Positions 462 to 28,267 of a DNA stretch of 64,000 bases are shown in pieces (position 1 is the first letter of the stretch; every line of letters starts with the position of its first letter). The position numbers and the translations under genes are program-made. The DNA comes from a phage: assembly GCA_019326865.1 (NCBI GenBank), contig GCA_019326865.1_4101.1; one strand, written 5' to 3'. A model generated the notes under the pieces. That model saw only the letters and a program-made list of their open reading frames with translations, was not told the origin of the DNA and made no database searches.

Positions 462-473
462 AACAACACCTCC

Positions 474-1817
474 TTATTTGTCAGTGAAAGTTATTTTCCA
501 ATATCCTTGTCGATAAACAGACATAATACTTTTATGCCATTTAAATTTGTCATTATACCTATAATAACCATTATCTTCTTTATTATAAATGTAATTACGT
601 ACAGATGATGGGTCAATTAATTCAACACCATCGTTTGTAATTTTAAACATATAATTTGAAGGAATTTCGGTTTCTTTATAAATGATGTTATGTATACTAT
701 TATTTACATAATATTGTTCCGGTATGGCATCGAAAAGAACTGAACCTTTCTGTACAAAACCATGTATTGTATAATCAACAGTATAGTTACTATTATCAAG
801 CTGCACAATAATTTTGTTAGCATCTTCATTTTCACCATATGAAGATATATAACCTTTAAGTGGATTGTCTTCTTCGATTGACTGTTGGAATTTAATACCT
901 ACTTTTTTGTCATCAAAATTTGGTTCTAAATATTTAAGATACTTTTCCCATGAATATATACCACCATTAGGTGAAACATCAGATAATGACTGACTGACTA
1001 AAGTTAACTGATATGTATCTGGTAAATTATATAAAGAATTAGTAATTTCTTCAACTTTAATACATAAATTTTTGGGCGTAAAAACATCAGTAATAATATC
1101 AGAATAGTCACCCATTTCAATATCAAATTCGTCACGAGCACCTTTAATGTTAGTAGTAATTTGATGAATTAGTTTTGGCTTTTCAACAATAGCTGGTAAA
1201 GAAAACCAAATTGTTGTTTCAAATGTTAATACCATTATATCCAAATCTTGATCAGTGCCTTGTGGAAAACCACGCGTAGTGAACTGACAATCAACTAATT
1301 CAACATCACTAAGTGATGTCCAGTCTAATGGATTATCTGATAATTGAAGCTGTATGCTTGGTGCAAATAAAGTAGAAATTTGCTCGAATAATTCCATTTT
1401 TGTTTGAATTTGAGTTACCCAAATATTCAAATCAAATGTAAAAGTCCAAGGTACTGGGTTGTGTCTTACAATTTTATACTGTGTGTCAAGTTCCTTTTTA
1501 TATTCATTAATAGCAGGAGACTTGTTTGTCCCCATCACTAAAGTTTCATTTGCATTAGAACGTATACTCTTACGATCCAACTTGAGTTGGTTAACACTTA
1601 TTGTCATAATAGGTGCTGATGGCAAAACGTTTTCACTATTACCATTAATAATTGCTGCTGCCATTCTTGAAATATCAGCATAACGACATGGAACTTTTTT
1701 ATATTTTGGGTTTCCATCAGCATCAACACCATTTTGTACTTGAAATTCACCAAAAACTCTGATAAGATGTTTCAGTACTCTGCGAAATTGACCGTCATAA
1801 TAATAATCTATCTTCAT
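474..1817 (-). CDS. virion structural protein, probable baseplate/tail component (447 aa)
   Basis: Long ORF in AT-rich DNA; same strand and operon as gp6/gp7-like genes; ATGA start/stop overlap with upstream ORF (translational coupling); no diagnostic motif recognised. Confidence 0.45.
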   Translation of the reverse strand: MKIDYYYDGQFRRVLKHLIRVFGEFQVQNGVDADGNPKYKKVPCRYADISRMAAAIINGNSENVLPSAPIMTISVNQLKLDRKSIRSNANETLVMGTNKSPAINEYKKELDTQYKIVRHNPVPWTFTFDLNIWVTQIQTKMELFEQISTLFAPSIQLQLSDNPLDWTSLSDVELVDCQFTTRGFPQGTDQDLDIMVLTFETTIWFSLPAIVEKPKLIHQITTNIKGARDEFDIEMGDYSDIITDVFTPKNLCIKVEEITNSLYNLPDTYQLTLVSQSLSDVSPNGGIYSWEKYLKYLEPNFDDKKVGIKFQQSIEEDNPLKGYISSYGENEDANKIIVQLDNSNYTVDYTIHGFVQKGSVLFDAIPEQYYVNNSIHNIIYKETEIPSNYMFKITNDGVELIDPSSVRNYIYNKEDNGYYRYNDKFKWHKSIMSVYRQGYWKITFTDK

Positions 1818-3307
1818 TCTGTATCCTTATGTATACGATATGCAGTATTTGGTTTAACTGCGTCATGTAATGGGACTTTATTATCACTATTTACGAACTT
1901 AGTAAGTGCCAAGTCTGCACCTTCCCATGGTTTTCTACCACCATAATCAAAAATAACCCATGAATTCTTTGTTGCATTGAATTCCCATAACGTAACTGGT
2001 GTATAATCGGTGCGATAAAAATAATCCCCATCAACAGCATCAGTAGGGAACATATTTCCTTCTGGAACAGTTCCTCTAGCGGGTGGAATTTTCGGTCGAT
2101 AATCCTGTTGGGCATCAATATTTCCATATACACTATTTGATGAGAATGGTTCATTAACATAGGTTACTTTTGGCTCGCCCCATTTATCATCATTGTACTG
2201 AAAAATGTGTGGTTCTTTATAAAAAATACAAAAATCTTCAATATTTTGCGGTGGGATATCACTTGTAGTATATTCTACATCACAATTTAACCATTTTTTA
2301 GCACTTTTGTCGTACTGATACAACGTATACCCAGTCACATCTGCATCATTTTCTTTAAAGAAAAAATCCCCATCCATTGGTTTTTTTGGAAAAACTGTTC
2401 CACGCTTGACTTCCAGTGAAATCCATGTATCATTGTCATACTCTTTGAGAACTGGGTACGTTTTTTTCAAAAAATACATACCATTAGCAGGTTCTTCTGG
2501 AAAATCATAACCGTTGAGCATATATTTAGATAAATCCACAGTATCGCGGCGGTCATCATACAAATGCTCGTTTGTATAATGGATATAAGGTACTTCATCA
2601 TCAGCTTGCATAATAATACGGTTCATAATATCCATTTCATTACTATAATTACTGTTTTCGGACGTACCATCGGTTGTGTTTCCATTACCATTATTTGGAT
2701 CATTTGGGTTATCTGGGTAATTATTGTTCCCCAGTAAGTCAGAGTACTCAGGTGAGTCAGTTAGTGGTTTTACTCTAAGTTTGTAAATGTGGTGTTGCCA
2801 CGTTACAGAGTAACCTTCGGCTGTACGAAATGCATCTTGTACCACATAGAAGCGATTTAGACCAGAATCTTTACCAAGTACATCATAATCACGCAAATTT
2901 GGCAATTCTATTACATCACCAGGCATGATTTTCCTGCCTAATCGTTGCATCATGGTATTGTAATGAATTGTGATGTCCATTGTGTTAAAATTAAAGAACA
3001 ACCCTGGGATTTTCAAGTCAGGGGTTGCTTCTTGGACTTGATAAACACAACTAAGTGTGATTGCTTCAAGGTTATAGCTTCGATTTGGTGTGTCTCCAAA
3101 AATTAAATCACCAATACTTGACACAACCGTACCGGAAGATGTATAATCACCGCCATATGATAAGTCATTGCTATCCGCAACTTGTTTTGGACCAACATAA
3201 GCGTAAAGCCACATGTCCACTCCACCTATGTTGTATTGTTCAGCAATTGCAGAGTCAATGAACTTGTAATCATTTGTTCTACCTTTTTTCCACATTCTAT
3301 ATGTCAT
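1814..3307 (-). CDS. virion structural protein, probable baseplate/tail component (~497 aa)
   Basis: Track ORF begins at a TTG (3319); first ATG at 3305-3307 has GGAG RBS 6 nt upstream; repeated DGDFFFK/DGDYFYR motifs; function by synteny only. Confidence 0.45.
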   Translation of the reverse strand: MTYRMWKKGRTNDYKFIDSAIAEQYNIGGVDMWLYAYVGPKQVADSNDLSYGGDYTSSGTVVSSIGDLIFGDTPNRSYNLEAITLSCVYQVQEATPDLKIPGLFFNFNTMDITIHYNTMMQRLGRKIMPGDVIELPNLRDYDVLGKDSGLNRFYVVQDAFRTAEGYSVTWQHHIYKLRVKPLTDSPEYSDLLGNNNYPDNPNDPNNGNGNTTDGTSENSNYSNEMDIMNRIIMQADDEVPYIHYTNEHLYDDRRDTVDLSKYMLNGYDFPEEPANGMYFLKKTYPVLKEYDNDTWISLEVKRGTVFPKKPMDGDFFFKENDADVTGYTLYQYDKSAKKWLNCDVEYTTSDIPPQNIEDFCIFYKEPHIFQYNDDKWGEPKVTYVNEPFSSNSVYGNIDAQQDYRPKIPPARGTVPEGNMFPTDAVDGDYFYRTDYTPVTLWEFNATKNSWVIFDYGGRKPWEGADLALTKFVNSDNKVPLHDAVKPNTAYRIHKDTE

Positions 3308-3349
3308 ATTTGTCTCCAAAATAATTCGGGTATATCTTTATTTACCATG

Positions 3350-3377: not shown

Positions 3378-3417
3378 GGTTATTAATTAGAGTGACGTGA
3401 ATCACATAGGAGAATAC

Positions 3418-5706
3418 ATGAATCTTACTCAATTGTTCAAAAAAAGCGACGAACTGGCAACATCTCTCGGTCATACATTCTTGACTATTGACCATGTAAG
3501 TGCTACAGTACTAACCATTGATAGCATCAAGAATGTGTTTGAAGATATGAATATTGATGCAGACAAATTACATAATCGCTTAATGGACTATCTTAAAAAT
3601 ACATCGATTCCACATGCTCCAAAAAGTACCCAAGATGAAGATGCCAATCGTACTTCACTACTAGTGAATCGTGTCGTACATGAGCTTTCAAAAAAATCTG
3701 TCATTGAACAACTAAAAACGGATGATTTTTCAATTGATGCATATTTTGTGTTATTTGAATGCTTGTCTTTCCCAAACACTGCACTCGAAGCTGCGTTGAA
3801 AGAAGAAGGTGTTAGTTGTACTGAGGCTGCTCGTGCACTACAGAAACATGTTGAGACACTTAATAAGGGTATCAACCTACAAAGCATTAATGATGAACCT
3901 ACTGGAGATAAAAAAGTGGCTCAACCACAACAATCATCTAAACAAAAAGGTTTGGAAGACTACACAACAAATCTAACCGCTCTTGCAAAAGAAGGAAAAT
4001 TAGATCCGATGATTGGTCGCCAAAAAGAACTGTGTGCACTGATTGAGACACTAGCTCGTAAAACTAAAAAGAATGCAATTCTTACTGGTGAAGCTGGTGT
4101 AGGTAAAACACAAATCATTGACGGACTAGCACAAGCCATCGCTGATGGTAATGTACCTGAACATCTGAAAAATGTTGAAATTCTTTCACTAAATGTTGGT
4201 GCATTGACTGCTGGTACAAAGTACCGTGGTGAGTTTGAAGAACGCATCGATAATTTACTAAAAGAACTAAAGAAACGTGAAAATACTATTGTTTTCATTG
4301 ATGAAATTCATATTATGGTTGGTGCAGGTTCTGCAAGTAATGGCTCGATGGATATGAGCAATATGTTAAAACCAGCACTGTCACGTGGTGAGATTCGTGT
4401 GATTGGTGCAACAACATACGAAGAATATCGCAAAAATATCGAGAAAGATAGTGCACTAACACGTCGTTTTATGAAAATTGACGTAGTTGAGCCGACAATT
4501 GATGAAACTCGTACAATTGTTAATGGGTTAAAGTCAACTTATGAAAAATTCCATAATGTTGAGTTTACCGCCGATGCCATGGATGCTGTAATTTCTCTCA
4601 GCGATAAGTTCCTGAAGAATAAACACTTCCCTGATAAAGCAATTGACCTAATGGATGCTGCTGCGGCTAAAGTTCGTTCACGTGACAATAATAGTAAGCT
4701 TATTACTGCAAGTTTGGTTCAAGAAGTGGTTGCTGGTATTGCAAACTTAGATATCAATGTGGTTGCATGTACCGAAAGTGAACGTATGCGTAATCTTCCA
4801 GATGCACTTCGTTCACGTGTATATGGTCAAGATGAGGCTATTCAAAAATTAGTTGATAACGTAATGGTTGCTCGTGCGGGTTTGCGTGATAAATCAAGTG
4901 TTCAGGGTGCATTTATGTTTGTTGGTCCATCTGGAACTGGTAAAACTGAAATCACCAAAGCATTAGCTGACGCAACTGGTTCTGAACTTATTCGTTTTGA
5001 TATGTCAGAGTTTTCACAAGAACATACAGTATCTAAACTTATCGGTTCACCTCCAGGGTATGTTGGTCATGATTCTGGTAACGGATTACTGCTAGATAAG
5101 ATTGAACAGTTCCCTAATGCAGTTCTGTTACTTGATGAAATCGAAAAAGCAGATCGCAAAGTACTACTAACCTTTCTACAGGTTCTGGATGAAGGTCGTT
5201 TGACTGGTTCACAAGGAAAAACTGTATATTTTAATAACGTAACTGTTATTATGACTACAAACCTTGGTGCAGCAGATTCAACTAAACGTAGTATTGGTAT
5301 GAGTGGCAGTGAAACTGCACAAGATAAAGCAATCAAAGCATTTTTACCACCTGAATTCATTAACCGTATTGATAGTATCGTTACGTTTAATGAACTAAGC
5401 CGTGAAGCAATTGATAGTATCATTGACAAATTTATTGGAAGCTTAAATGACCAAGTAAAAAGCCGTAATGTAAAAGTTACTCTCACAAAAGCAGCACGTG
5501 AATGGTTGGCACAAAATGGTGTTCAAGCTGGCATGGGGGCACGACCTATGAAGCGTACAATTGAACAAAACATTCGTGTTCCACTAGCGAAAGAAATGTT
5601 GTGTGGAACGCTAGTGAATGGTGGTAACATCACATTTGATGTTATTAATGGTAAAATTGGCATCAAGCCAAAACGCACCAGAACAGTTGAAAAATCACTA
5701 GCCTAA
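3418..5706 (+). CDS. ClpA-type AAA+ unfoldase (two nucleotide-binding domains, Clp N-domain, IGM ClpP-docking loop)
   Basis: Walker A GEAGVGKT and Walker B IVFIDEIH (NBD1); Walker A GPSGTGKT and Walker [10 protein letters not shown] (NBD2); no long ClpB-type middle domain; SIGM tripeptide loop at nt 5293-5301 in the position of the ClpA IGL loop; track start 3397 is GTG, ATG 3418 has GGAG RBS. Confidence 0.85.
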
Positions 5707-5715
5707 AAAGAAAAA

Positions 5716-5740
5716 GGAGAGCACAATGCTCTCCTTTTTT
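5716..5740. terminator. bidirectional rho-independent terminator
   Basis: GGAGAGC-acaat-GCTCTCC then T6; A-run on other side. Confidence 0.75.
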
Positions 5741-5741
5741 A

Positions 5742-8700
5742 TTATTTAACTAACAATATATTCTTAATATCACTCCCACTTATTCGTAGGCTATTGGTAT
5801 ACATTGAAAGGTCTATTGTGTAACCATTATGAGTATAATGTTTAAATTTATCATAACTACCCAAATTAATACCATTAAAAGAATATGTAGTATTAAGTTT
5901 AAAGTCATGCTCAGCACTATACATTACTCCACGGAGCAAATTATTTGCATTTCTGACTTCAACTTTTTCATACCCAATCGATATAATGTCATTCCTGTTA
6001 GCAGAAGAACCTAATAACACATTATTTCTAATATTATAAGGACTTACTGATATAGGTTGAGCAACATACGTTGTATTTTCTTCACTGATAGTTGTTATGT
6101 TAGTGATAGTACCACCGACAACACCAATATATATATTGTCAACCATTGGATATTCATAACCCCATATACCTTCATTATTTTTGAATGGTTTGATATCATT
6201 CGCATCATATTCAATTACGTTAATTTCTAAACAATCAGGCATTTTAGTTCTTACCAATTCACTAAGAACACCATCCCCAGTAATTGGTAGGTTATACCCG
6301 TTATCTATAGTAATTCCATCGTCATTAAATATTTCGTTCGATACAATCCAAACATCAATATCATCAGGTGTTACACCGTCATTATACTTACCACCATTTA
6401 AAGTAGTATCATAAAAAACGTCATAATTAATCACATCAATAGTGTAATTTCGGTTTTGTTCATATAATTTAATACCATCTTTGACAAATTCTGAGTCAGT
6501 AAATGTTCTAACACGAACAATGTTCAAGGCAAGAGGCTGTACTGGCTCATTTTGTTGTGCAAGTGTGATATTATCATAACGAAGAACAGCACCAGAAGTA
6601 TCAACTAATTCAATCGTTTCCTTACCAGTAGTTCTTACTGTGAAAAGGATAGGAGTTGTATTATGTTTGATATTAGATACACGCAATATGGTTTCCCATT
6701 TATGGTTTTGATATCTTATAAAGTCTTCACCATCAGGAGTGAAAATCATCACCTTATCACCATCAGATAAGTCATTGTCAACAATTTCCGCTTCAGTCAA
6801 GCTATTAATAGATCTCACACGATAAAAATATTTTTCATCAAACGGTGCTGATTTTTTATTAATATCATTTTCAACCTTAGCATATGAAGGAATACTAACA
6901 ATTGCTTCTGTGTGTTTATATGGATTTATAATTGCCATACCTTCAGTTTGATATCTACTATTATTACGTAATTGCACTAGTGACACGTTGTCAAACCCAT
7001 ACCCATCAACAGTAAATCTAATATGCCCAACATCACGACCAGATGGATTTATATCAGATATGTCAATAATATAAGGATCAACTTCGTCGTCTTTAACTTC
7101 CCATTTTATGGTAGAAGTTTGTGATTCTAATGCAAGGTTATCAAATGCATTCATATCATTAAAGTACTTAGCTTCAGAAATACTATCAAGTATAAATTGA
7201 TAGTCTGAATACATTGGGTTATTTGTATCTTGTGGTAAATCGTCAAGATTTATTTCCGCAAGTTCAACCATTTCACCATTTGTAATAAAATAATCTTCCA
7301 TGAAATCATCAATACTTCTGTTATCTGGTATACTTTGGTTTACACCGTTAACATTTAAATATACATATTTCCTTGGCATCATAGTAATAGCATAGATATC
7401 AATTGGTGTTTTTGAAAGAATTTCTTCCGCTTTTTCGTACTTGTCGGTAGCATCTTTGTCAAACAACCCTCTCATACCTGCTAATACATGAACTGCATCT
7501 GAATAGAAACGAGTATCTCCACCAACCTCATCATAACGATAAACGTATACACCATATTCAACTTCTAGTTTTACTTTAATATCATAGTCTGATGCATCAG
7601 GATGTTTATCTTTAATTAAAGAAATATATTTTTCATATAATTCTTTACTTATTTCAAAATACCCATAGTTATAATCATTACTAGAAGAAAAGCCTAATGG
7701 AAGTCTTGTGCTCGGATTATCATTATAAGTCAATCCACTGAACCCACAACCAACTTCATCATGAATTTTATCATCACTGATATCTTTATAAAGTTTCAAG
7801 CGGTTGGCTAATGTGTTATACTGTACATATTGTCTAAGGTCAGTAAACATTTCATTATGCGTTGATTCTTTATAAACTCGTTCCAAAGTAGCAGTAAATT
7901 TATCAGTGGCTTCTAAATCATCTGCATGATCTTTATACCATTGGTTCACACCATGTGCAGTTCCAAGTGTTACATCCAATTCTGGATAATAGATTTGCAT
8001 TAGATACGCATTAACAAGGTCAAACGATTTTTCATTATATTCTGGGAAAGAATATATATAACGTTGTAATTCATAGTTATTAACAGAATCTTTTTCATTT
8101 GTTTGATATTTTTTATTAACACTAACTAAATCATTAATGTTTGCCAAATCTTCGTTTGGTTTACATTGAATGTTATCATAATGCATAATAATATCAATTT
8201 CTTGGAATCTTCTATTTGGGGTAATAAAATCACTAGGTAATGCACCAACTTGTTCCCATTTTTTAGTAACTTCATTATATTGTGCGTACTCGTAATCCCA
8301 AATATCTTTTTCAGTTTTAATCCAAGAACCATCAACGAAAATATACCCATTAGGATCTAAATCGTTACAAAGACCTTTTATTAAATCATCATCAGATGTT
8401 TTTTGTTCTATTTGTGAACGAATTTTAGTTCTATAAGGTTTAACCTCTTCAAAGTACTCAACAATTTGATTAATCAAATTATCATTTGAGTAATTTTGAA
8501 CTAAAGATTGTTCCAACCCAACAATATAGATATAGGAAGTTTTAAATACCCAATCTACAACACTTTGTTCGACGTGAACATATTTTACCATATCAAACAC
8601 AATTTCGCTTTGATGTAAATCGAAAGAATGTTTAAGTAATGCTAGTGCTTTACGAACATTTATTTCACGATTACTAAGGGAACCATCATCATTGTAAACA

Positions 8701-11700
8701 CTATAGTCTGTATAAAGTATATCATTAAGTTCAATAGTACTATTTTGACGACCAATAGCTTTCCAATAAATTGAATCACGTGATTGAGATTTGATATACA
8801 ACGTCCAAATATTTTCACTATCTGTAACTCTGATGATATCACCGACTTGATAGTTTTTAGTATTTGCTTCTTCTAAACTTGTCTCTTGAATATAAGCTGT
8901 TTTACTATCATACCCAACGTCATACCAATCAGCATATGACCAGTAATGAGTCATATCTAATGATGTTCCAAGTGATTCAACATAATCACTTTGCTTAATC
9001 ATTTTATGTTGTCCCTCACCTTTATTTTCTAAAGTTATAGTAACAATATTTCCTGTATTGGCCGGGCTGTTCATTAACTGAATATATCCATTTTCATCAA
9101 AGTGAATGAAATAAACTGCACTGGTGGATAAAGGATTTGGTAGATAACCGCTGGAACTTAAAATAACAGCGTCATTTTCTTTAAATTTATCCTTTTCGAC
9201 TGCAATCACCAATTCATTATTATAAGACAATACACGGAAAGAAACCTCATTTGGGTTAACTTCTGTTGTTTTGACATTAAACACATCTTCCATAACAACA
9301 CTATTAGTGGTTATGTTTTGTGATCTATAATAATTATTAGCACTTTCTACAAAGTTTCTACGTGCTTCAATTACATTCTGGAACCAGGTTTTATTGGAGC
9401 CGATTCCATTATCAACATCTGGATATAATAAATTTATCACTGAACCTGACTTGGTAGTTTCTTGTCCTATTAGTGAGTTCCACATTGAATCCCAAATTAA
9501 TGGATTGAAGTTATAACTTTCTCCCTCTTTACACAGTTGGTACTGATCATGTTTAACAACTTCAGTGCTGTCCATATAGTAAGAAATAGTCAAAATACTG
9601 GTGTCATCATTGACTTTAAACTGCATATTACTAAGGATAAAAGAGTTTTCATTAATTGGTGCAAACCAAGGAATGTTTAACTGTGATGGATCTTTAATAA
9701 TACGTGCAATATCAGTACATGATTTAGTTCTGGTATGTAGTGGTGGTACATAAATTGTATCACGTACCCAGAAATAGTATTTTGTCACATAACTGTCAGT
9801 TGAGCTATCATATTCCAAAAATGTACTATAATTATCTTCAAGTGCAGTTCCGCTTGGAAGATACATATTATTATTTTTGTTTTTCTTAGCAACATCTTTA
9901 CAGTACTTATCCCAGTTATATGGTTCTACTGGTGAACATACCCACTCTAATACATCAATTGTGCTATGTGGCAACAAACGCCCCCAGTTGTATCGTTTGT
10001 ATTCATTAGTTGCGTCAATATCAACATTACCATCTGCGTCATAAATGGCACGAGTATAATCCAAATAAAATGCAGTGCTTGTGTTCCACCATACTTGACC
10101 TACTTTATCTGCACCCCAAGCTTGAACTAATTCGCCATTACTATTATATTGTGCAGGGTCAATTGGTGAAGTATATGTCACGTTTTGCATAGCTGCACCT
10201 GGAATAACACCATTAATTGGGTCAAAAACGTTTAGATATAATGCAGTAATATTTGTGCGTTCATCATACGTTGTTGGTCGTTCAAATAAAGTGCTCTGTG
10301 GTGCTTTAAAGCTATATTTTTTGTCAATATATTCTTGACGTTTATCAGCACTAGAAAAACGTGAAACATAACGATACAAACGTGGACGAGTAGCCGGATC
10401 AGTAAATTCAATATTAATTGAAGTATCAAATGGAACTACCATAACTTTAGAATCTTCACCAGCAGTATAATATTGACTTTCTACTGTTAATGTATCTGGC
10501 ATAAAGTTTGTTTCATCAACAAAATAATAATAATCACCATCTTCAAGTGGGATTTTATCAGTCAATGTTACTTTACAGAATTGTTCAGCGTAAATATCGG
10601 TATTTTCTATTGGTGTTATAGAAACCATTTGTACATTAGTGTCAACTAATTCAAAAATGTTCCACAAACCATTACCATCTTTAAACATCCAAACTGATTC
10701 TGGATTTTCACCTTTACCGTTAACATAAGAAATTCTGTCGTTATATGCAGTACTGAAATCTTTAGTAGTGTAAGATACTTCATCTAATGTCACTGGACCA
10801 ATGTCAGGAAGTTGGATATGTTCACTTCTCCCACTACGCATTGGAAATGAAAATTTTCCATTCGGGCGTGTAATCCAACGTGGGTCTTTACCTTGATCAC
10901 CAAAATATACAACATTATTACCATTGCCATTTGAAGTTGCGTTTTCATCAAATGACACCATTTGTGGTTGTTGTTTAAATTGGTCATTAATTAATTTAAA
11001 TTGGAGATTTTTCTTACCATCAATATTACCATATGTACCAATTTTAAATGCCCATTCTTGTAATGCTTTATACTCATCTGTGTCATATGATTTAGAAACA
11101 CGTAAAACACGTTCTAAAACTTGGTTAGTGCCTTTGTCATGAATAAATCCTTTATAAAAATCAACACGACTAACATCGCTACTAATCATACGTTGTAGAT
11201 AATCACGTGATTGGTAACCAATTAAATGACTAGATAATTCTTGTAATTGTACATCGCTTACAGGGTTTTCATTATCATAGTAATGTTGAAAATCAGTTAC
11301 TAATGTTTCAAATGAAGGAATTGTACCAGATTCTAATATAATAAAACCAGGTGCTTGTAATCTACCCGTCCATGAACCAGTAATATAACCGTACATTTTG
11401 ATTAGTTCCTGAATAGAACCATATGTTGGTTGATAGATGTAATCACCAAAAATAGTTTTATCATCAAATATAACCGCATGTTCATATGAACACAAACTTA
11501 AACGAAGTAATGCAATACGTTTATTAGAATCTAATGTTCTAACAGTGAAAATATTACCAATACGAGAAGTTTCGATTTCATATTGACGAATTCCTTGGTT
11601 ATTATCATCAAGTAATGACCATACTCCACCATTATTTTGTGCAATAGACTGAACTGAGCCAAAATCTGAACCAAATTTTGCATTTGTTGCACTTGGTGTA

Positions 11701-14700
11701 CAAGATATAAATTCCCCAGTTACAAGAGAATTCTGGCTCCACATCACAAAATCTTTAGCAATAGTGTTCCAATCTTGCTGAACGCCGCCATCATTTACAT
11801 CTTCGAAGATCCAGCCATGTTCTTTAAGATACTCACCATAACCACAAATAAAAGTATAGACTTCTTGGTAACTGTTAAAAACCGTTCCATATTCAATAGA
11901 AGCCTCAGACTTCCATTCATTGTAATGGACAACATTACGGTTTTCTAATTTAATAGTTACTTTTCGACCATTTTTCACTGGGAGTTTATATTTAAATTTA
12001 GCACCAACCAAATCATATCCATCGATTTGATATGCACTGCCATTCCATGTAATTTTGATTGCACTCATCTGTTCATCACGAATATTATTCGAACGTACAA
12101 GTCCAATTGTTTGGTTTTCTTGAGAAATCAACCCAAATGATTTAGCATTGAATGTTAGTTGGTCTGCTTTAGTAAAGCCTCCAATTTTATGTCCTACATT
12201 TACATAAGAAGAACGAACAATATCACCATATTTTGTAGTAATGTTTTTATTTTGATACATCAAATAATCACTAACGAACATTTGATACCCAATTGTTCTT
12301 GTGTTATTTTCACCATGAACAGTGGTTTTTTTATCAAAATTAACACGATTACGGGTATCCCCATAAAGAAATTGTTCACCACCAGTGAATATTTCTTTTA
12401 AATTATCATTTCGGGTGTCCCAAAAATAGTTTGCGAATTGTGCTGGTTTAGCTTTATACAATAGCATCATTTGGTCATATGCAAATAATGTGGTATTCAT
12501 GTAAGTGAATTCCATGTCACCCATATCACCATATGCCCAAGGTTCTGCTCTGTGATTTAAAGAACCAGATACTAAACCTAAAATCTCAGGGGCAATATAC
12601 TCAACAACACAAATATCCACACCAGATGATGTTTTATTTCCAGTTTTTGTAATTTTAAATGGTTGTACACCAAATCTTCTATATTTGTTATACTGACCAC
12701 GACGTTCACCAGATAAAATTGTACCAGTGCTACTATCCCCAATAGTATCATTAATATTCCAAAGACCGCTAGGAACTAAATCACCTTGTTCATCTGTGAC
12801 AAGTGCTTCATATACATATACAACATCACTATCACGTTCACCAACTTGAACAGCAGTTGGTTCATATTCTTGGTTCCACCAAGTAGGACGTTGTGTAAAT
12901 CCAAACATTTCCCATGGATGTGTTGCTGGACGATATGTACCATATTGGTCAGTATAGATTGCACGCCACGAACCACGAGCAGGAATTTCAGTACTTTTAC
13001 CATCAACCATATAATAGGTTCCAGTGTAGTTCCATGTTCTCCAGTTACTTGGGTCATAATCATGTGTACTATTACTAATACCATTGGATGCTGTAAAATT
13101 AATATAACCACGTAATAAAAGTGTTTGTTTTTCTTCTGCACTATATTCAGTTTTTGTAAAATATGGAGTAGGGAAAAGGTCATCACTATTCAATACTGGA
13201 ACATAATCAACATCTTTGAATTTATTATCAATACTATTAAAAATTCTATTTTCCAACTCATAAACAACATCATCCATTTTATCAACACCATTAATTACGC
13301 GATATGCTTTTGAAATGATACCAGTATGGCTAATGTTATAAAAGCTTGGTTTACTACCAGCAGTTAGAAATGTAGCTTTCTCAGGAACATATGCTTGTAG
13401 AATACCCAAAAACTGTGGTGTTGGTGGTATAAATGCACGAATAAGTCCAGATGTGCTTCCTACATTATCATAATAGAACGGGAATGAGCTATCACGTCCC
13501 ATATTGATAGTAGTTAAAATAGAATCAACAATACTTGCTGCACTATTTTGTAAAAAGTTTGATGGATTTTCATTATACATACGAAGCATTTGAGTATTAA
13601 ATTTATTAATGAATCTGAAATATTCAGATTGCATAAACATAGTTGCTTCAAATAAATCAATATCTTCATTTGCAGTATGAGCCATCAATGGGAGCATAGA
13701 AGCTTCATTTTGAATAATTTTAGTTCCTACTCCATTATTCACTAATCCCTTAGCTAAACGTTCTTCATAATCGTTGAAGTCATCAGCATAACCACTAGTG
13801 ATATTCTGTTGAATAATATCCTGAAAATGAAGAGTATAGTCTCCTTGATTAATATATATAATATTGGAGTTATATGGGTTATTTTGTAAGTTAATTGGAA
13901 CTTCATATGCACCTAATTCTTTATCAGGTGTTACAGTTCTACTATAAGTTCTAATTTGGATAACAGAATCATCATCTAAATCTATCGAACTATCAAGTGT
14001 GATGCTTTGTACTTGACCTTTTGATACATTCTTTGTATATTTTGATACATTAACACCATCGACATTAACTTCAATAATATCAGAATCATTATCTAAAACT
14101 TTTTGAGCTAATTCAAACGTATGATTATATTTTAAAATCTGAATACCATCACCACTAATCTGATGCCAGTCCAAATAAGTTTCACGTTCTGCTTTATAGT
14201 ACTGATATGTTCTATCAACTTCAATAACATATGCATACATACCATCAACAGGTTCTTTGAACACTTCCATGTCATAAACAGTACTGAACACTCGATACAT
14301 GTCAGTACGTTGGACCTGTGGAGTTTGTTTTACATATTGTTTAGAGTATTCTTTTGAACGAACCCAATCAGTTTTTAGATTCATTTTATTAGTTTCATCA
14401 ATAATGTTATAATAATACAATCCACCAATTTCAACTTCAACACCAAGATGGTCATATGTATAACGTTGTGATTGCAAAAAGTTTTCATATGTGTAATAGT
14501 TGTAATCACCAAGTTCAATGTTATACCCATATACGCTATCAGTAGCGTAATTGTAATTTATTTTAAAACCAAATAATTGTGAACCTTTAAAGTTACTGGA
14601 TGGGTATGTTGTACTATTATCTAGTTTAATCCCATTGCGATCATAAAGTTGGAACTGTGGGAAGACGTTAACACTAGGTTTAGACTGTGCACGAACCCAC

Positions 14701-15710
14701 AAAGTACCATTCCAAAACATAGAACTATTACCATATTCATTACCTTTGGTAATTAAAACAACATCTCCATCCTGTGGTTCACCACTTGGACGAGATTCTG
14801 ATTCTTCATCGGGGTCTAGTGCTAAGCCATAAACACGTGTACCATCTTGCATTTTTTTAACATATATTTTATAAATTCTATTGTTTTCGCCATCGTTACC
14901 AATACTAGTGAATAGAATACGCATACCATCTTGTGGAATAATACCATCAATGCGAATACCACTATTGACATCTTTTTGGATAATATCTTCAGGTTTAATA
15001 TTATCAGAAAAAAGTTCAACTGTGCCACGGAATTTTGTACCATAGTTAATTAGCTCAATATTTTTATTATATTCAATAATTGGTGCACGAGCACGAATAA
15101 AACGAGCATCTTGCATTAATTCTTCGGTCAAGATAGAACCATCTTCCAGTGTTTCACCTAAAGTATACCAAAAGTTTTGTAATGACCAAGTATTACCATT
15201 ACGTGCACCACGTTCCATGACAATGTAGTCAGGGGTAGTAATATTATAAGAGTTTTTTGTATCCCAAAGATATGAGCTAAAATTATTCATTTTATTTGGG
15301 TTGATAGCAGGTGTCCATGCATAAAACTTACCGTTAAATAAGCGGCTTTCATTATCGGTTAGTGCTCCGTAATGACTCATGTACCCAACCAGATCATCAT
15401 AAAATTGAATTGAACGAATAGTCGAATCATCATTTTTAGAGACGTAAGCAGTGGACAACTGATAAAGTTGTCGAGCAACAGTACTTTCGTGTAAAAAGAT
15501 ATTACCAGCAGCGGCTGGAGAACCCATATCACCAATATAACCGTCAACTAATTCGTTTTCAGCCGGATTAAACCATTGTTGAATAACATCATCACTGACT
15601 TTCTGAATATCTTCTAAGCCTTGCATCCACTCAGGCAATCTTTTAATAAAAAGCTTTTTCTGTACTGCTTCAGCCATCTGTGTAGGTTGAAACTTAAAAT
15701 TATTAGTCAT
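5742..15710 (-). CDS. giant baseplate-associated structural protein in gp7 position (~3,320 aa)
   Basis: Single uninterrupted ORF of ~10 kb immediately downstream of the gp6-like gene on the same strand; N/Y/G/T/S/D-rich beta-type composition; ATG at 15708-15710 has GGAG RBS (track start 15737 lacks one). Confidence 0.6.
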   Translation of the reverse strand: MTNNFKFQPTQMAEAVQKKLFIKRLPEWMQGLEDIQKVSDDVIQQWFNPAENELVDGYIGDMGSPAAAGNIFLHESTVARQLYQLSTAYVSKNDDSTIRSIQFYDDLVGYMSHYGALTDNESRLFNGKFYAWTPAINPNKMNNFSSYLWDTKNSYNITTPDYIVMERGARNGNTWSLQNFWYTLGETLEDGSILTEELMQDARFIRARAPIIEYNKNIELINYGTKFRGTVELFSDNIKPEDIIQKDVNSGIRIDGIIPQDGMRILFTSIGNDGENNRIYKIYVKKMQDGTRVYGLALDPDEESESRPSGEPQDGDVVLITKGNEYGNSSMFWNGTLWVRAQSKPSVNVFPQFQLYDRNGIKLDNSTTYPSSNFKGSQLFGFKINYNYATDSVYGYNIELGDYNYYTYENFLQSQRYTYDHLGVEVEIGGLYYYNIIDETNKMNLKTDWVRSKEYSKQYVKQTPQVQRTDMYRVFSTVYDMEVFKEPVDGMYAYVIEVDRTYQYYKAERETYLDWHQISGDGIQILKYNHTFELAQKVLDNDSDIIEVNVDGVNVSKYTKNVSKGQVQSITLDSSIDLDDDSVIQIRTYSRTVTPDKELGAYEVPINLQNNPYNSNIIYINQGDYTLHFQDIIQQNITSGYADDFNDYEERLAKGLVNNGVGTKIIQNEASMLPLMAHTANEDIDLFEATMFMQSEYFRFINKFNTQMLRMYNENPSNFLQNSAASIVDSILTTINMGRDSSFPFYYDNVGSTSGLIRAFIPPTPQFLGILQAYVPEKATFLTAGSKPSFYNISHTGIISKAYRVINGVDKMDDVVYELENRIFNSIDNKFKDVDYVPVLNSDDLFPTPYFTKTEYSAEEKQTLLLRGYINFTASNGISNSTHDYDPSNWRTWNYTGTYYMVDGKSTEIPARGSWRAIYTDQYGTYRPATHPWEMFGFTQRPTWWNQEYEPTAVQVGERDSDVVYVYEALVTDEQGDLVPSGLWNINDTIGDSSTGTILSGERRGQYNKYRRFGVQPFKITKTGNKTSSGVDICVVEYIAPEILGLVSGSLNHRAEPWAYGDMGDMEFTYMNTTLFAYDQMMLLYKAKPAQFANYFWDTRNDNLKEIFTGGEQFLYGDTRNRVNFDKKTTVHGENNTRTIGYQMFVSDYLMYQNKNITTKYGDIVRSSYVNVGHKIGGFTKADQLTFNAKSFGLISQENQTIGLVRSNNIRDEQMSAIKITWNGSAYQIDGYDLVGAKFKYKLPVKNGRKVTIKLENRNVVHYNEWKSEASIEYGTVFNSYQEVYTFICGYGEYLKEHGWIFEDVNDGGVQQDWNTIAKDFVMWSQNSLVTGEFISCTPSATNAKFGSDFGSVQSIAQNNGGVWSLLDDNNQGIRQYEIETSRIGNIFTVRTLDSNKRIALLRLSLCSYEHAVIFDDKTIFGDYIYQPTYGSIQELIKMYGYITGSWTGRLQAPGFIILESGTIPSFETLVTDFQHYYDNENPVSDVQLQELSSHLIGYQSRDYLQRMISSDVSRVDFYKGFIHDKGTNQVLERVLRVSKSYDTDEYKALQEWAFKIGTYGNIDGKKNLQFKLINDQFKQQPQMVSFDENATSNGNGNNVVYFGDQGKDPRWITRPNGKFSFPMRSGRSEHIQLPDIGPVTLDEVSYTTKDFSTAYNDRISYVNGKGENPESVWMFKDGNGLWNIFELVDTNVQMVSITPIENTDIYAEQFCKVTLTDKIPLEDGDYYYFVDETNFMPDTLTVESQYYTAGEDSKVMVVPFDTSINIEFTDPATRPRLYRYVSRFSSADKRQEYIDKKYSFKAPQSTLFERPTTYDERTNITALYLNVFDPINGVIPGAAMQNVTYTSPIDPAQYNSNGELVQAWGADKVGQVWWNTSTAFYLDYTRAIYDADGNVDIDATNEYKRYNWGRLLPHSTIDVLEWVCSPVEPYNWDKYCKDVAKKNKNNNMYLPSGTALEDNYSTFLEYDSSTDSYVTKYYFWVRDTIYVPPLHTRTKSCTDIARIIKDPSQLNIPWFAPINENSFILSNMQFKVNDDTSILTISYYMDSTEVVKHDQYQLCKEGESYNFNPLIWDSMWNSLIGQETTKSGSVINLLYPDVDNGIGSNKTWFQNVIEARRNFVESANNYYRSQNITTNSVVMEDVFNVKTTEVNPNEVSFRVLSYNNELVIAVEKDKFKENDAVILSSSGYLPNPLSTSAVYFIHFDENGYIQLMNSPANTGNIVTITLENKGEGQHKMIKQSDYVESLGTSLDMTHYWSYADWYDVGYDSKTAYIQETSLEEANTKNYQVGDIIRVTDSENIWTLYIKSQSRDSIYWKAIGRQNSTIELNDILYTDYSVYNDDGSLSNREINVRKALALLKHSFDLHQSEIVFDMVKYVHVEQSVVDWVFKTSYIYIVGLEQSLVQNYSNDNLINQIVEYFEEVKPYRTKIRSQIEQKTSDDDLIKGLCNDLDPNGYIFVDGSWIKTEKDIWDYEYAQYNEVTKKWEQVGALPSDFITPNRRFQEIDIIMHYDNIQCKPNEDLANINDLVSVNKKYQTNEKDSVNNYELQRYIYSFPEYNEKSFDLVNAYLMQIYYPELDVTLGTAHGVNQWYKDHADDLEATDKFTATLERVYKESTHNEMFTDLRQYVQYNTLANRLKLYKDISDDKIHDEVGCGFSGLTYNDNPSTRLPLGFSSSNDYNYGYFEISKELYEKYISLIKDKHPDASDYDIKVKLEVEYGVYVYRYDEVGGDTRFYSDAVHVLAGMRGLFDKDATDKYEKAEEILSKTPIDIYAITMMPRKYVYLNVNGVNQSIPDNRSIDDFMEDYFITNGEMVELAEINLDDLPQDTNNPMYSDYQFILDSISEAKYFNDMNAFDNLALESQTSTIKWEVKDDEVDPYIIDISDINPSGRDVGHIRFTVDGYGFDNVSLVQLRNNSRYQTEGMAIINPYKHTEAIVSIPSYAKVENDINKKSAPFDEKYFYRVRSINSLTEAEIVDNDLSDGDKVMIFTPDGEDFIRYQNHKWETILRVSNIKHNTTPILFTVRTTGKETIELVDTSGAVLRYDNITLAQQNEPVQPLALNIVRVRTFTDSEFVKDGIKLYEQNRNYTIDVINYDVFYDTTLNGGKYNDGVTPDDIDVWIVSNEIFNDDGITIDNGYNLPITGDGVLSELVRTKMPDCLEINVIEYDANDIKPFKNNEGIWGYEYPMVDNIYIGVVGGTITNITTISEENTTYVAQPISVSPYNIRNNVLLGSSANRNDIISIGYEKVEVRNANNLLRGVMYSAEHDFKLNTTYSFNGINLGSYDKFKHYTHNGYTIDLSMYTNSLRISGSDIKNILLVK

Positions 15711-15792
15711 TTTCTGGACTCCATATAATTCGTTCATTCATTTATTTTATTTATTAGATAAAAAAGGCGTTCCGAAGAACGCCAGTGTAACA

Positions 15793-18700
15793 TTAAGAAC
15801 CAATATTTATATTGCTTTTAGCTAATGAGTTAACTATTTGAACATTTTCTACAGATGCAGTACTCAAAAATATTTGGTCAGAACGTGATGGAATTTCAAA
15901 TAGAGAACCAAATTTTGAATTTGGATTTTGTGCAACTATCACAATTGTACTAATATGTCTACCCAATTGGGAATGTATATAAGTACACAAATCAGTGTAA
16001 TAGAAACTTTCACCAAAATCCCAGTTATCGACATTAAAATATTCATTTGTTAATGCAATAACATTTTGACGAATTTCATCATCACTCATAGTGCTATTTG
16101 GTAATTTAACAACTTTAAAATCAGCTTTATAGTCTTCAGCAGCACTATTACCAAACAATGGTAGATACTCTGCACTATGCCAAATAATACTGTCACTGAT
16201 GACAGTTTTTTGTTCAACATCTTTGAACATATTTTTCAATTCAACTGATGTAGGTGGTTTTGGGATACTTCCAACTGCATTATTTTTCAACCACACATCA
16301 ACTTCGGTTTTATATGAGTTAGTTAGAACATACATATCAATTAAGTTTGTTCTACTTGGATCAATGCGATTATCATCAGGTGCATAATGCTTCCAATGGA
16401 AATCAATACTTGTACGAGCATTTGTTTTAACTGTGTATTGTGCAGTGACATCTTTATAACCATAGTAATCCAATTTCTGATTCTCATCTGAAATAGTACC
16501 CATATTGTTAATTGTACGATAAAATGCGAGTTCTGGAGTAACAGTGATGGTGTCATCTGAATATGTCAAATTACTAATTAATTGGCCCAAACGATCATTG
16601 TTGTTACCAACGGTCTGTTCGATGAAATAATATTTACCATCATATTTAAAACACACCAAGAATCCAGAACCTTTACTGTACAATCCACTCAATGAGTTAG
16701 AACGAATTGCATTATTTCGTACAAATTCAGTTCTTTTATATGTATTAGGTTCAGCTAATGCTTGTTCCATAGTATAAGACCAAGATGAATCTAGAAGCGT
16801 GAATGTATCATTTGGTAAAGATAGAACTGAAATAGTAAAATCATTATTTTCTTTGAATATCAAAATACCACCATATTTTAATGCATCAGAACCTGACCAT
16901 TCTGGGACAATTTCTTTAAATTGATTTGGCTCTAATGGTATACCATTACTATCTACTTTTCTAGATGTGACTATAATACGAGAGCCATCAAGATATCCAT
17001 TTTCTTGCTGTATTGTATCATAAATTTGAAAATCAATATTACTCGTTAGTCCAGAATTGTTAGTACTTGTGGTGTTCGAAGATAAAATTTCAATCTTATC
17101 ACTTTGAACCGTACCAGTACTAATATCAGTTATTTTTTTGGATGAAACAAAGTAAAATTTCACTTTATCTCCACCGACGAATATATATTCAATACCATTA
17201 GCGTCAAATTCCCAGGTTTCTGCTGTATATCTGACATTTATAACAACCAAAACTTCATGACCATTATACACAATAGTATCATCATTCGTACTTACTTCTA
17301 CAGGAACCCATGCAGTTGTTTCTTTGTCATGAACGATGACAAAATCAGTTTTCTTATCCAACATTGCAGAAATAGATTGAACTTCAACGGAATCAAATCT
17401 AGTTCTATATGGTAATATATAATCAATTGCTTGCATTCTACTTGGCACAGATGTACTTAATACATAAAACCCATTATCTAAGACACTAACAACGCTTGCC
17501 CATACTGTAGATGTAGAGTTAGAAAATTTAATCAAAGTACCTACCTGATACGAGCCATATACGGTTCCAGATGAACCCAAAATTCTACCATATGTATTTG
17601 TAGTATAATTTGAATTATATACAGGCGTCCATGATTGTTGGATTTCAATGCCAATCGTATTGGAAGGGTAAGCTTGATAGCGTTGTATTACTGCATTTTC
17701 ACCAATCAATGGTTGAATATTATCAATAACAATACTGGCATTAGTTTTTGTTGTTGGTAGTAGTAATGATTTATTAAATTTAGTATTTTCTTGATATAAT
17801 GCTCCGTCATCACTAAAAACATCAGTGTTTTGGTATTTCCCAGTAGGATCATTGATGTCAATAAATCGAGACTGACCACTATAAATTCTATTAATAGCTT
17901 TCGACTTAAGTACTGTATTTCCTAAGCTAAGAGGTGCTATATTATAATCTTCGCCATTAACAAAACGGTTTTGTGTATAGTACATTTGTGGTGCACGTGC
18001 TTTAATCTGCTCAATCGTCTCAGCACTTTGTGCACGGTCGGATTCATATTGTAATGAAAAACGCACATCCAACGTACTAGATTCATAGCTTGATTGGGTT
18101 TTAGTTCGATATGTATACTTTACACTTTTATTTTGAATTTCTGATGTTTTAATGTTATACGTTTTACCATTGCTGACGCGATACCACACGCGAAATGTTC
18201 CACGCGGAACAACACCACTTCTAGAATCTGGATATTTAATTGTTATTTGGTCTTTGTCACGAGTTGAAACAGCAAAAATTGTTTTTAATTGACGGTTAAC
18301 CGTATTATATGCAATACTTTCCATAGATGGAACTTTTGTCCATTTCGCACGCACAATGCCGTCTTCATTAATTTCTTGAACCCAAACATCAGTTTCGTTT
18401 ATATTATCAACGTTTACATCTTGTATTCTATTTTCTTCACGAATGTTATATTGATAATCTTGATATGTCAACGTCCCTTGTATAAAATATACAAAAAAAC
18501 CAGTATTTGGTGAACTGAATCCATTACCATCATTTTGATATACAATATATTTTTGTTCTTGTGGTTCTGGGTGACGTTCCTCAACACCAACGGATGTAAT
18601 GTCAGGGTTTACCACTTCAAATGTCATAGATTCACCATTTACTGTTGCAACAAATGGTATACTTGGTGCAGTCATTGGAATCGTATTCATTCTATACAAT

Positions 18701-19254
18701 TGTCGTGATACACCATTAACATCAATACGTTTAACTGGGTTCCCAAATTGATTAGTACTAACAAATGAACTATTCATAACAAGAATGAAGTTTTCATACC
18801 AATTTGCATCCATCGGGTCATTCCAACGAATAATTTTATCTTTGAGTGATTCATTGAAACTATTACGAACATCTTGGTTAGTTTTAATTTCAGTTAATTT
18901 TGCAACTGCACGTCCAGGATAAGAGCGACGTGGTGTATAAGAAATCATTTTAGCTAGTTTTAGAACTGATGCACGACGTGTTGCAGTATCTAAAAAGTTT
19001 TCACGCGTGTTCAAATCCATACGAAATGCCAAGTTCTGCCCTAGCATAGAAATTGTATCCAGAATAAAAATGAATTGGTCATTTTCAATCCAGTCATTGA
19101 ATGAATCAGGATATGTTTGACGCAAATAATCAATCATACTCTGGCGAATAGTATCAAAATCATATGCAGTAAGGTTGATTTTATAAAAACTTTCATAAAC
19201 TTGAGTCCAATCTTCACCACTATATAAATTCGATTGCCTTTTTTGTTGTGACAT
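15793..19254 (-). CDS. baseplate wedge protein, gp6/gpJ-like (1153 aa)
   Basis: N-terminal region (DFDTIRQSMIDYLRQTYPDSFNDWIENDQFIFILDTISMLGQNLAF) resembles the baseplate-J/gp6 N-terminal domain as recalled from memory; position between gp25-like and gp7-position genes; AAGGA RBS. Confidence 0.6.
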   Translation of the reverse strand: MSQQKRQSNLYSGEDWTQVYESFYKINLTAYDFDTIRQSMIDYLRQTYPDSFNDWIENDQFIFILDTISMLGQNLAFRMDLNTRENFLDTATRRASVLKLAKMISYTPRRSYPGRAVAKLTEIKTNQDVRNSFNESLKDKIIRWNDPMDANWYENFILVMNSSFVSTNQFGNPVKRIDVNGVSRQLYRMNTIPMTAPSIPFVATVNGESMTFEVVNPDITSVGVEERHPEPQEQKYIVYQNDGNGFSSPNTGFFVYFIQGTLTYQDYQYNIREENRIQDVNVDNINETDVWVQEINEDGIVRAKWTKVPSMESIAYNTVNRQLKTIFAVSTRDKDQITIKYPDSRSGVVPRGTFRVWYRVSNGKTYNIKTSEIQNKSVKYTYRTKTQSSYESSTLDVRFSLQYESDRAQSAETIEQIKARAPQMYYTQNRFVNGEDYNIAPLSLGNTVLKSKAINRIYSGQSRFIDINDPTGKYQNTDVFSDDGALYQENTKFNKSLLLPTTKTNASIVIDNIQPLIGENAVIQRYQAYPSNTIGIEIQQSWTPVYNSNYTTNTYGRILGSSGTVYGSYQVGTLIKFSNSTSTVWASVVSVLDNGFYVLSTSVPSRMQAIDYILPYRTRFDSVEVQSISAMLDKKTDFVIVHDKETTAWVPVEVSTNDDTIVYNGHEVLVVINVRYTAETWEFDANGIEYIFVGGDKVKFYFVSSKKITDISTGTVQSDKIEILSSNTTSTNNSGLTSNIDFQIYDTIQQENGYLDGSRIIVTSRKVDSNGIPLEPNQFKEIVPEWSGSDALKYGGILIFKENNDFTISVLSLPNDTFTLLDSSWSYTMEQALAEPNTYKRTEFVRNNAIRSNSLSGLYSKGSGFLVCFKYDGKYYFIEQTVGNNNDRLGQLISNLTYSDDTITVTPELAFYRTINNMGTISDENQKLDYYGYKDVTAQYTVKTNARTSIDFHWKHYAPDDNRIDPSRTNLIDMYVLTNSYKTEVDVWLKNNAVGSIPKPPTSVELKNMFKDVEQKTVISDSIIWHSAEYLPLFGNSAAEDYKADFKVVKLPNSTMSDDEIRQNVIALTNEYFNVDNWDFGESFYYTDLCTYIHSQLGRHISTIVIVAQNPNSKFGSLFEIPSRSDQIFLSTASVENVQIVNSLAKSNINIGS

Positions 19255-19325
19255 AATTTATTCCTTTAAATCAGTAAAGTACTAGTTCAGTACTGGGAAT
19301 TATATAGAAATATTTATTCAAAAAG

Positions 19326-19349
19326 AAAAGCACTCAGAAGAGTGCTTTT
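19326..19349 (-). terminator. rho-independent terminator after gp25-like gene
   Basis: 10-bp perfect stem AAAAGCACTC/GAGTGCTTTT, 4-nt loop, T-run on minus strand. Confidence 0.65.
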
Positions 19350-19355
19350 TCTTAA

Positions 19356-19751
19356 TTATAAAGACGATACTGAATAAGTTGCCATTCTATTATTACTTCT
19401 TGCATCAAAGACTATAGAAAGTTCTTCTACTGTATTCAATACAACGTATTGTAATACGATATTCATTTGGTATCCATATTCAATTCTTGAAATTTGTATG
19501 TTTTTAAGATTTAATCGTGGATCTAAGCTAATAATCCTACGTGCATCGGCTTCTAAAAGGTTAATAGTATTATATCCTTCCAATTCAAACAACAAATCCC
19601 ATGCAATAAACCCATAGTCTGCATCAAATGCTCTTTCGCCTTTTTTTGTATTAAAATGATTCATCAAATCCTGTCGAACCAATTCATTATCATACAATGT
19701 TTCAGTTCTACCCACAACTGGTGTAGAGAAACCTTTGAAAACAACTGCCAT
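19356..19751 (-). CDS. baseplate wedge protein gp25-like (GPW/gp25 family, 131 aa)
   Basis: Motif GERAFDADYGFIAWDLLFE matches the gp25 signature (G.RPFDPEFGC.L...LFE) as recalled; size and synteny fit. Confidence 0.65.
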   Translation of the reverse strand: MAVVFKGFSTPVVGRTETLYDNELVRQDLMNHFNTKKGERAFDADYGFIAWDLLFELEGYNTINLLEADARRIISLDPRLNLKNIQISRIEYGYQMNIVLQYVVLNTVEELSIVFDARSNNRMATYSVSSL

Positions 19752-20269: not shown

Positions 20270-20277
20270 TATTTATA
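20270..20277 (-). promoter_or_regulatory. T4-type late promoter (TATAAATA) for lysozyme gene
   Basis: Exact TATAAATA on minus strand 17 nt upstream of ATG, followed by GAGGA RBS. Confidence 0.5.
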
Positions 20278-26305: not shown

Positions 26306-26313
26306 TATTTATA
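26306..26313 (-). promoter_or_regulatory. T4-type late promoter (TATAAATA) for minus-strand baseplate operon
   Basis: Exact TATAAATA on minus strand, divergent from and overlapping the gp55 early promoter. Confidence 0.5.
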
Positions 26314-26344: not shown

Positions 26345-26401
26345 AACATTGATGGTACAAGGATTGTATCTATTGGATTTAAACATGGAGAGTTGAATAT
26401 A

Positions 26402-28259: not shown

Positions 28260-28267
28260 GGGAATAT

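Follow-up and report, generated by a model that had tools for sequence, protein, structure and literature searches.

The 64,000-nucleotide window analysed here (contig GCA_019326865.1_4101.1 of the phage assembly GCA_019326865.1) carries on its minus strand, at positions 5742-15710, a giant open reading frame (ORF) whose product is a bona fide structural protein of the virion, made up of several domains and encoded directly after a gp6-like baseplate wedge gene. The explanation that we favour, at somewhat better than even chances, is that this giant is a gp7-equivalent peripheral wedge protein, present once per wedge, whose conserved body would belong to the outer baseplate and whose fused distal module and insertion sites would face the fibres or the host.

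The ORF list and the translation of the window showed an uninterrupted frame down to the stop codon at 5742-5744, and at the base composition of the window the probability that 3322 stop-free codons arise by chance is ~2e-106. The first in-frame ATG, at 15737, would give a reading of 3331 residues, but the true start is likely the ATG at 15710, because a GGAG Shine-Dalgarno motif read directly from the sequence lies 8 nt upstream of it (15719-15722, minus strand) and because the PHROG 10938 profile and the annotated protein of phage 121Q both start at this ATG, residue 10 of the longer reading. From this start the coding sequence (5742-15710, minus strand) specifies 3322 residues plus the stop, with a mass of 382.3 kDa and an isoelectric point of 4.7. 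Asparagine (8.1%), aspartate (8.0%), serine (7.2%), tyrosine (7.2%), threonine (6.9%) and glycine (6.0%) together account for 43% of the protein, and neither tandem repeats in the DNA (Tandem Repeats Finder) nor internal repeats in the protein (self-BLAST) were detected. The initial annotation, which did not name the strand, had described a single ~10-kb ORF of ~3,320 residues at these positions, rich in N, Y, G, T, S and D and devoid of obvious simple tandem repeats, and on all these counts it holds.

By sequence, the window phage is an Asteriusvirus-like (Rak2-like) jumbo myophage, and its giant gene is a further member of a known, uncharacterised family and not a new gene. PHROG 10938 matches the protein from end to end (E=0, 5637 bits, residues 10-3328 of the 3331-residue reading against profile positions 1-3324), and when the protein was cut into 500-residue windows all ten matched this profile in register and no other PHROG. 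Megablast with the DNA of the ORF retrieved 64 phage records, 35 of them covering at least 80% of the query, with Escherichia phage UE-S1 as the nearest (96.9%) and 121Q (gene 582), PBECO4 and phAPEC6 at ~89%. At the protein level, tblastn with the two halves (residues 1-1700 and 1651-3322) matched 93 and 89 records, respectively, and the identities of the first and second halves were 98.6/96.9% for UE-S1, ~94/92% for 121Q and PBECO4, 68/59% for RaK2 and 64/50% for CBB and GAP32. Altogether the giant has 188 database relatives, with lengths of 2749-5574 residues among the 120 matches listed, and beyond the Rak2-like genera both halves have counterparts in PA5oct (3857 residues), Atu_ph07 (4449 residues), Vibrio phage 2.275.O (3771 residues), Salicola phage SCTP-2, XacN1, Xoo-sp13 and RAS14. 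The Rak2-like members (UE-S1, 121Q gp582, PBECO4, phAPEC6 gp245, RaK2, GAP32_230 and CBB_236) are full-length and collinear, measure 3320-3345 residues and have the same neighbours, including a convergent ClpA-like gene; the window copy shows no essential difference from them and diverges most in its C-terminal 870 residues. The distant members (PA5oct gp128, which is RefSeq gp355, Atu_ph07 gp180, 2.275.O, SCTP-2, XacN1 and metagenomic proteins of up to 5574 residues) share a common body, residues ~15-2450, at 24-30% identity, but differ by large inserts at two hot spots and by unrelated C-terminal tails of 400-2073 residues; the inserts and tails bring in CBM_5_12, FG-GAP, cadherin-like and Big_9 domains, none of which the window protein has. 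The CBB paper took "the largest ORF" as its reference point when Rak2-like genomes were aligned (PMC5259590), and no location or function has been assigned to the family in the searched literature on 121Q, PBECO4, phAPEC6, CBB, RaK2, PA5oct, Atu_ph07, UE-S1 and phiKp24 or in a 2026 jumbo-phage review; in phiKp24 the family is unrelated and the baseplate was not resolved in the published work.

That the giant is a true, expressed virion protein follows from mass spectrometry (MS) of homologs in phAPEC6, CBB and PA5oct. In phAPEC6 virions, gp245 was identified at 381.88 kDa by 17 unique peptides with 7.6% coverage and is listed beside the gp6-like gp244 (PMC7247149), CBB_236 was identified in virions by 21 peptides (PMC5259590), and the PA5oct homolog is flagged in its annotation as detected by electrospray ionisation tandem MS (ESI-MS/MS). 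Peptide coverage was low in both the phAPEC6 and the CBB homolog (7.6-7.7%). Moreover, dozens of phages sequenced independently of one another carry the frame intact; their hosts are Escherichia, Klebsiella, Salmonella, Erwinia, Serratia, Cronobacter, Pectobacterium, Yersinia and Xanthomonas.

The position of the gene points to the baseplate. The minus-strand order in the window is a gp53-like gene (104 residues), a 749-residue virion protein, a gp5-like hub/lysozyme (887 residues), a 162-residue lysozyme, a gp25-like gene (131 residues), the gp6-like gene (1153 residues) and the giant, which agrees with the annotation of 121Q and with the T4 order 53-5-...-6-7 and bears out the gp7 position assigned to the ORF by the initial annotation. 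The wedge gene directly upstream (15793-19254, minus strand) matches PHROG 10646 with E=0 and, over residues 26-125, PHROG 219 with E 1e-19, and residues 28-113 of its product align by hhalign to residues 21-105 of T4 gp6, within the Gp6-like helical domain (E 1.3e-4). The gp25-like sheath initiator/wedge gene (19356-19751, minus strand) was recognised by Pfam GPW_gp25 (E 8.6e-9) and by PHROG 43. The giant gene also directly follows a gp6-like gene in 121Q, CBB, PA5oct, Atu_ph07 and the metagenomic contig that encodes P0089 (4297 residues), with gp25 preceding the gp6-like gene in PA5oct and the P0089 contig. The longer series gp53-like, hub, gp25, gp6-like and giant is syntenic among the window, 121Q, CBB, PA5oct and metagenomic contigs, and Atu_ph07 shows the last two genes of the series in the same succession; the synteny thus spans great evolutionary distances. 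Across the family the giant is the sole candidate in the gp7 position. In every characterised contractile system the gp6 helical domain pairs with one adjacently encoded gp7-type chain (PMC6300606; PMC10457771), and in T4 the third chain of a wedge is one gp7, which also serves the peripheral proteins as a platform (PMC6300606), the role expected of the giant. We argue for a gp7-equivalent role because the protein encoded upstream possesses this gp6 helical domain and such a domain pairs with one adjacent gp7-type chain; the domain is also the one indirect sign of a (gp6)2-gp7 heterotrimer (core bundle plus trifurcation unit).

T4 gp7 itself (1032 residues, PDB 5IV5) is likewise large and composed of several domains, and its gene stands directly behind that of gp6 in the order 53-5-(25)-6-7, and the giant is 3.2 times larger, close to the threefold difference noted at the outset. 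The minimal gp7 orthologs (XM1 gp17, P2 gpI, Mu gp48, pyocin PA0619 and TssG of the type VI secretion system) are also encoded after a gp6-like gene, and the giant exceeds XM1 gp17 (242 residues) ~14 times. These small orthologs begin with a helix-turn-helix (PMC10457771), as the giant does in its predicted model, a likeness that is topological only. Against homology with gp7 stand the profile comparisons. The Pfam domains of T4 gp7, namely Gp7_helical (PF21428, residues 643-689), Gp7_5th (PF21427, domain V, residues 766-861) and Gp7_6th (PF21456, domain VI, residues 920-1012), were absent from the whole giant and from ten overlapping windows at E<=5; hhalign of the giant-family alignments against the 24-member gp7 family gave probabilities of 0.1-0.2%, and no hhalign comparison of the giant exceeded 1.1%, whether the partner was T4 gp7 (as a single sequence or as a family), T4 gp6 or one of the gp6-like neighbours. 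No gp7 chain, that of 5IV5 included, appeared among the fold matches for residues 1-2400, in a search in which large multi-domain queries penalise small-domain matches and whose models take in all but 922 residues. Membership of the giant in the gp7 family is not established, and what we propose is a functional equivalence.

AlphaFold2 (AF2) models were built on 24-sequence alignments and cover residues 1-2400 of 3322. Model 1 (residues 1-1200) reached a mean predicted local distance difference test (pLDDT) of 82.4 and a predicted template modelling score (pTM) of 0.75, and model 2 (residues 1201-2400) a mean pLDDT of 77.4 and a pTM of 0.47. DSSP assigned 24% helix and 27% strand over both models, a mixed alpha/beta composition, so that of the multi-domain, beta-rich protein foreseen by the initial annotation the multi-domain part stands and the beta-rich part only partly does. 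Foldseek of model 1 against solved structures returned no convincing neighbour (best E 0.24), and neither AF2 model gave a convincing solved-structure match; what weak matches there were fell on beta-sandwich, adhesin and pilin domains of a generic kind and on the adaptor domains with which phage tailspikes and fibres begin. Among the latter, the T4 gp10-like adaptor domains of branched tailspikes (CBA120 TSP4) are a lead only, as the scores of the giant lie below any accepted threshold. Sequence searches were equally silent: Pfam gave nothing meaningful for the whole giant or ten overlapping 500-residue windows, NCBIfam gave nothing, and against PDB sequences phmmer produced only chance GCN5 matches (E>=0.09) and the family profile 0 matches; the Pfam, NCBIfam and PDB searches brought up neither enzymatic nor membrane motifs.

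Two segments are conserved and poorly predicted at the same time. The first is a helix-turn-helix near the N-terminus, at residues 14-47 (15570-15671, minus strand), modelled as helices 14-24 and 32-47 with pLDDT 29-53, in a region where family identity is 0.60 (residues 1-100). The second, residues 1411-1547 (11070-11480, minus strand), is the most conserved stretch of the family, with identities of 0.64 over residues 1401-1500 and 0.59 over residues 1501-1600 and dense invariant columns; it is partly helical from residue ~1467, and it is here that the monomer model is least confident (pLDDT 29-58 at residues 211-350 of model 2). Because both segments are conserved yet poorly predicted as a monomer, we propose them as candidates for partner-dependent folding, the second of them as a putative core-bundle-like segment.

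The layout of the protein was derived by mapping 48 distant homologs onto the query (BLAST coverage and a map of high-scoring segment pairs, HSPs) and from conservation within the Rak2-like clade. A conserved body spans residues 1-2350 (8661-15710, minus strand), as delimited by the coverage of the distant homologs, the HSP map and the AF2 models. From residue ~15 to 2450, that is, over the body from ~15 to 2350 and the block at 2366-2450, identity within the clade is 50-64%, with weaker stretches at residues 500-600 and 1700-1800 (36-39%). The body is interrupted in relatives at two hot spots: the first, in the HSP map, at residues ~149-160 (15231-15266, minus strand), accommodates inserts of 165-550 residues in distant relatives, and the second, at residues ~1600-1810 (10281-10913, minus strand), is weakly conserved here and receives inserts of 500-1600 residues. 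The inserts at the second hot spot carry cadherin-like, Big_9 and FG-GAP domains, according to Pfam positions in three relatives (P0088, P0093 and P0105), and the C-terminal tail of one of these (P0093) contains a CBM_5_12 module; all four are domains typical of exposed, surface-binding proteins.

Beyond the body lies the last universally conserved block, residues 2366-2450 (8361-8615, minus strand), which we call the adaptor and which forms the N-terminus of a distal module. The remainder, residues 2451-3322 (5745-8360, minus strand), is a fast-evolving, lineage-specific region with no coverage by distant homologs, and within the Rak2-like clade identity falls to 0.27-0.43 after residue ~2450, with many indels, against 0.50-0.64 elsewhere. 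A phmmer search with residues 2451-3322 against 1.84 billion representatives yielded only 7 matches, all from the same family, two of them giants with the match at the same C-terminal position (P0024, 3341 residues, and P0124, 2818 residues) and five of them fragments of 60-343 residues. The boundary is also a natural break: in two independent metagenomic contigs of one lineage (P0073/P0075) the giant gene is split (L005 2433-14684; L008 9001-21379) into a body ORF of 2749 or 2779 residues, ending at the equivalent of residues ~2335-2350, and, after a spacer of 46-64 nt, an ORF of 1312 or 1330 residues with its own start that opens at the equivalent of residues 2366-2450. Residues 3-127 of the 1330-residue ORF (L008) match giant residues 2366-2489 (E 1e-11), residues 1-67 of the 1312-residue ORF (L005) match giant residues 2374-2439 (E 3e-8), and by hmmsearch the split distal ORFs score E 6e-28 and 7e-24. 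These split relatives imply that the window protein is a fusion of body and distal module, with a natural fission/fusion point at residues ~2350/2366, and the adaptor block is likely the docking element of the module.

Taken together, we propose that the giant would act as the functional equivalent of T4 gp7 in the baseplate of Rak2/121Q-like jumbo myophages, each wedge holding one copy and the virion six. As a starting point, the virion protein is expressed from a gene that is always placed after the gp25-like and gp6-like genes. A (gp6)2-gp7-type core bundle is needed by every contractile baseplate, and here the helices at residues 14-47 and/or ~1467-1541 would come together with the helical domains at the N-termini of two gp6-like chains to form it. 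The body of ~2350 residues would then build in one polypeptide the outer baseplate, a scaffolding that T4 divides among gp7, gp8, gp9, gp10 and gp11. Finally, the two exposed insertion sites and the fast-evolving distal module (residues ~2366-3322) would face outward, and in the lineage in which the distal protein is separate it would have to dock via the conserved block at residues 2366-2450. Since adhesion and carbohydrate-binding domains occur at these positions in relatives and the distal protein can be a separate one, the module would most likely dock lineage-specific fibres or contact the host surface. We also consider, as a tentative and rather doubtful extension, a "mega-wedge" in which one ~2400-residue polypeptide made of folds without solved relatives replaces the gp7 core-bundle chain together with the whole T4 periphery (gp7 to gp11) and bears a module for docking receptors or fibres that can be fused or detached, as the fission/fusion point at residues ~2350/2366 suggests.

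The initial annotation had left a choice between a baseplate and a fiber-network protein; the gene position favours the former, and the latter survives as a rival in which the giant is the trunk or scaffold of a branched tail-fibre apparatus, attached to the baseplate outside the wedge core, while another small protein plays the gp7 role. We hold this to be unlikely. The tailspike and fibre adaptor domains among the fold matches would suit it, with structural scores far below significance, and the body is conserved across phages whose sets of fibres differ greatly, among them PA5oct and the short-fibred Atu_ph07. Dedicated fibre genes lie elsewhere (for example 121Q gene 571), the giant has no repeats and no fibre-like periodicity, and, examined as a possible trimeric tail fibre or tailspike, it showed neither periodicity nor a significant fibre or spike fold match. 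The compact, multi-domain and mixed alpha/beta model of residues 1-1200, with its pTM of 0.75, fits a baseplate body better than a fibre.

Another reading, to which we give little credence, takes the giant for a different virion appendage, for instance the hair-like whiskers that CBB and phAPEC6 bear along their sheath and collar, or for an internal or ejected protein. Both phages have unassigned whiskers of ~119 nm (PMC7247149, PMC5259590), a multi-domain chain of 3322 residues could span that length, and PHROG 10938 is filed under "head and packaging", a category that conflicts with the constant position of the gene among the baseplate genes. Against this reading, all genomes examined have the gene within the baseplate module, the low peptide coverage suggests a low copy number unlike that of multi-ring whiskers, the predicted architecture is compact, and the searches for enzymatic or membrane motifs were negative. 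Tape measure proteins are predominantly alpha-helical, and their genes lie after those of the tail chaperones and before that of the hub; we rejected this identity given the 24% helix and 27% strand of the giant and its place after the gp6-like gene instead of before the hub.

The concern of the initial annotation that frameshift errors had fused several ORFs into an assembly or annotation artefact draws on the splitting of the region into 3-5 or more ORFs in a few deposited genomes (SD-1_S14, SD-2_S15, SD-6_S16, CMSTMSU and the K64-1 RefSeq record), and it is effectively refuted by the intact frame in dozens of independent isolates and in metagenomes, the amino-acid conservation over the whole length, the 381.9-kDa product in the phAPEC6 virion proteome and the negligible probability of such a frame by chance. 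The records OR699183.1, OR699181.1, OR699182.1, MH494197.1 and NC_027399.1 break the gene up into 3-17 "hypothetical proteins", yet in four of the five the DNA remains collinear at ~80-89% identity, K64-1 being matched by tblastn only (68% protein identity over residues 1-1700), and the split annotations probably reflect sequencing frameshifts or annotation errors in the records themselves.

Around the giant gene, a pattern scan predicted two terminator-like signals: a GC hairpin followed by a T-run on the minus strand (15766-15783; 7-bp stem with 5 GC pairs), between the stop codon of the gp6-like gene and the giant gene, and a bidirectional hairpin (5710-5740, 13-14 bp stem on both strands) common to the giant and the convergent ClpA-like gene. 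An exact match to the T4 late-promoter consensus, TATAAATA, lies at 15804-15811 on the minus strand, 94 nt 5' of the giant ATG and within the 3' end of the gp6-like gene. Exact TATAAATA sites are no more frequent in the window than expected by chance (9 observed against 11.4 expected), and as a late promoter of the giant gene the site is only a lead. The majority of the nine sites fall just 5' of ORF starts (15804-15811, 20270-20277, 26306-26313, 30957-30964, 32910-32917, 38794-38801 and 40003-40010). A late sigma factor is annotated in 121Q beside the baseplate module (gene 591), with a syntenic window ORF near 26393-27241.

The convergent neighbour (3397-5706, plus strand) encodes a ClpA-like AAA+ ATPase of 769 residues (PHROG 4871), and the annotations of 121Q (gene 581) and CBB (gp235) place it next to the giant gene as well, whereas those of PA5oct and Atu_ph07 do not; a putative role for this ATPase would be that of an unfoldase or chaperone dedicated to the 382-kDa protein. 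Within the baseplate module, 121Q has between its gp25-like and gp6-like genes an HNH endonuclease ORF (27518-28282; gene 584, "protein associated with group I intron"), in place of which the window has only a spacer of ~100 nt with a hairpin (19254-19356), the mobile element being absent here. The 162-residue lysozyme ORF (19765-20253, minus strand) matches positions 727-885 of PHROG 13211, the same PHROG as the 887-residue hub (20290-22953, minus strand), and is therefore a stand-alone duplicate of the C-terminal lysozyme domain of the hub, which also contains an M23-peptidase-like stretch and DUF2345. Near 26 kb the GC skew changes sign, at the point where the minus-strand baseplate genes give way to plus-strand genes, the two groups forming divergent transcription units.

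The gene was already in databases and its giant size had been remarked on in the CBB paper; what is newly defined here are the module boundaries. The layout of body, hot spots and distal module, the split site that nature provides and the two helical segments that are candidates for partner binding supply structural biologists with hypotheses and with limits for constructs. Nothing in the PDB resembles the ~2400 residues modelled with confidence, and the distal module and the insertion sites are plausible host-range determinants for engineering. If the mega-wedge were true, it would represent an independent solution to the outer baseplate across a broad jumbo clade (Rak2-like phages, PA5oct, Atu_ph07, SCTP-2, XacN1 and many uncultured ones). 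Six copies of the giant would total ~2.3 MDa, probably most of the baseplate mass in a widespread group of therapeutic-candidate jumbo phages.

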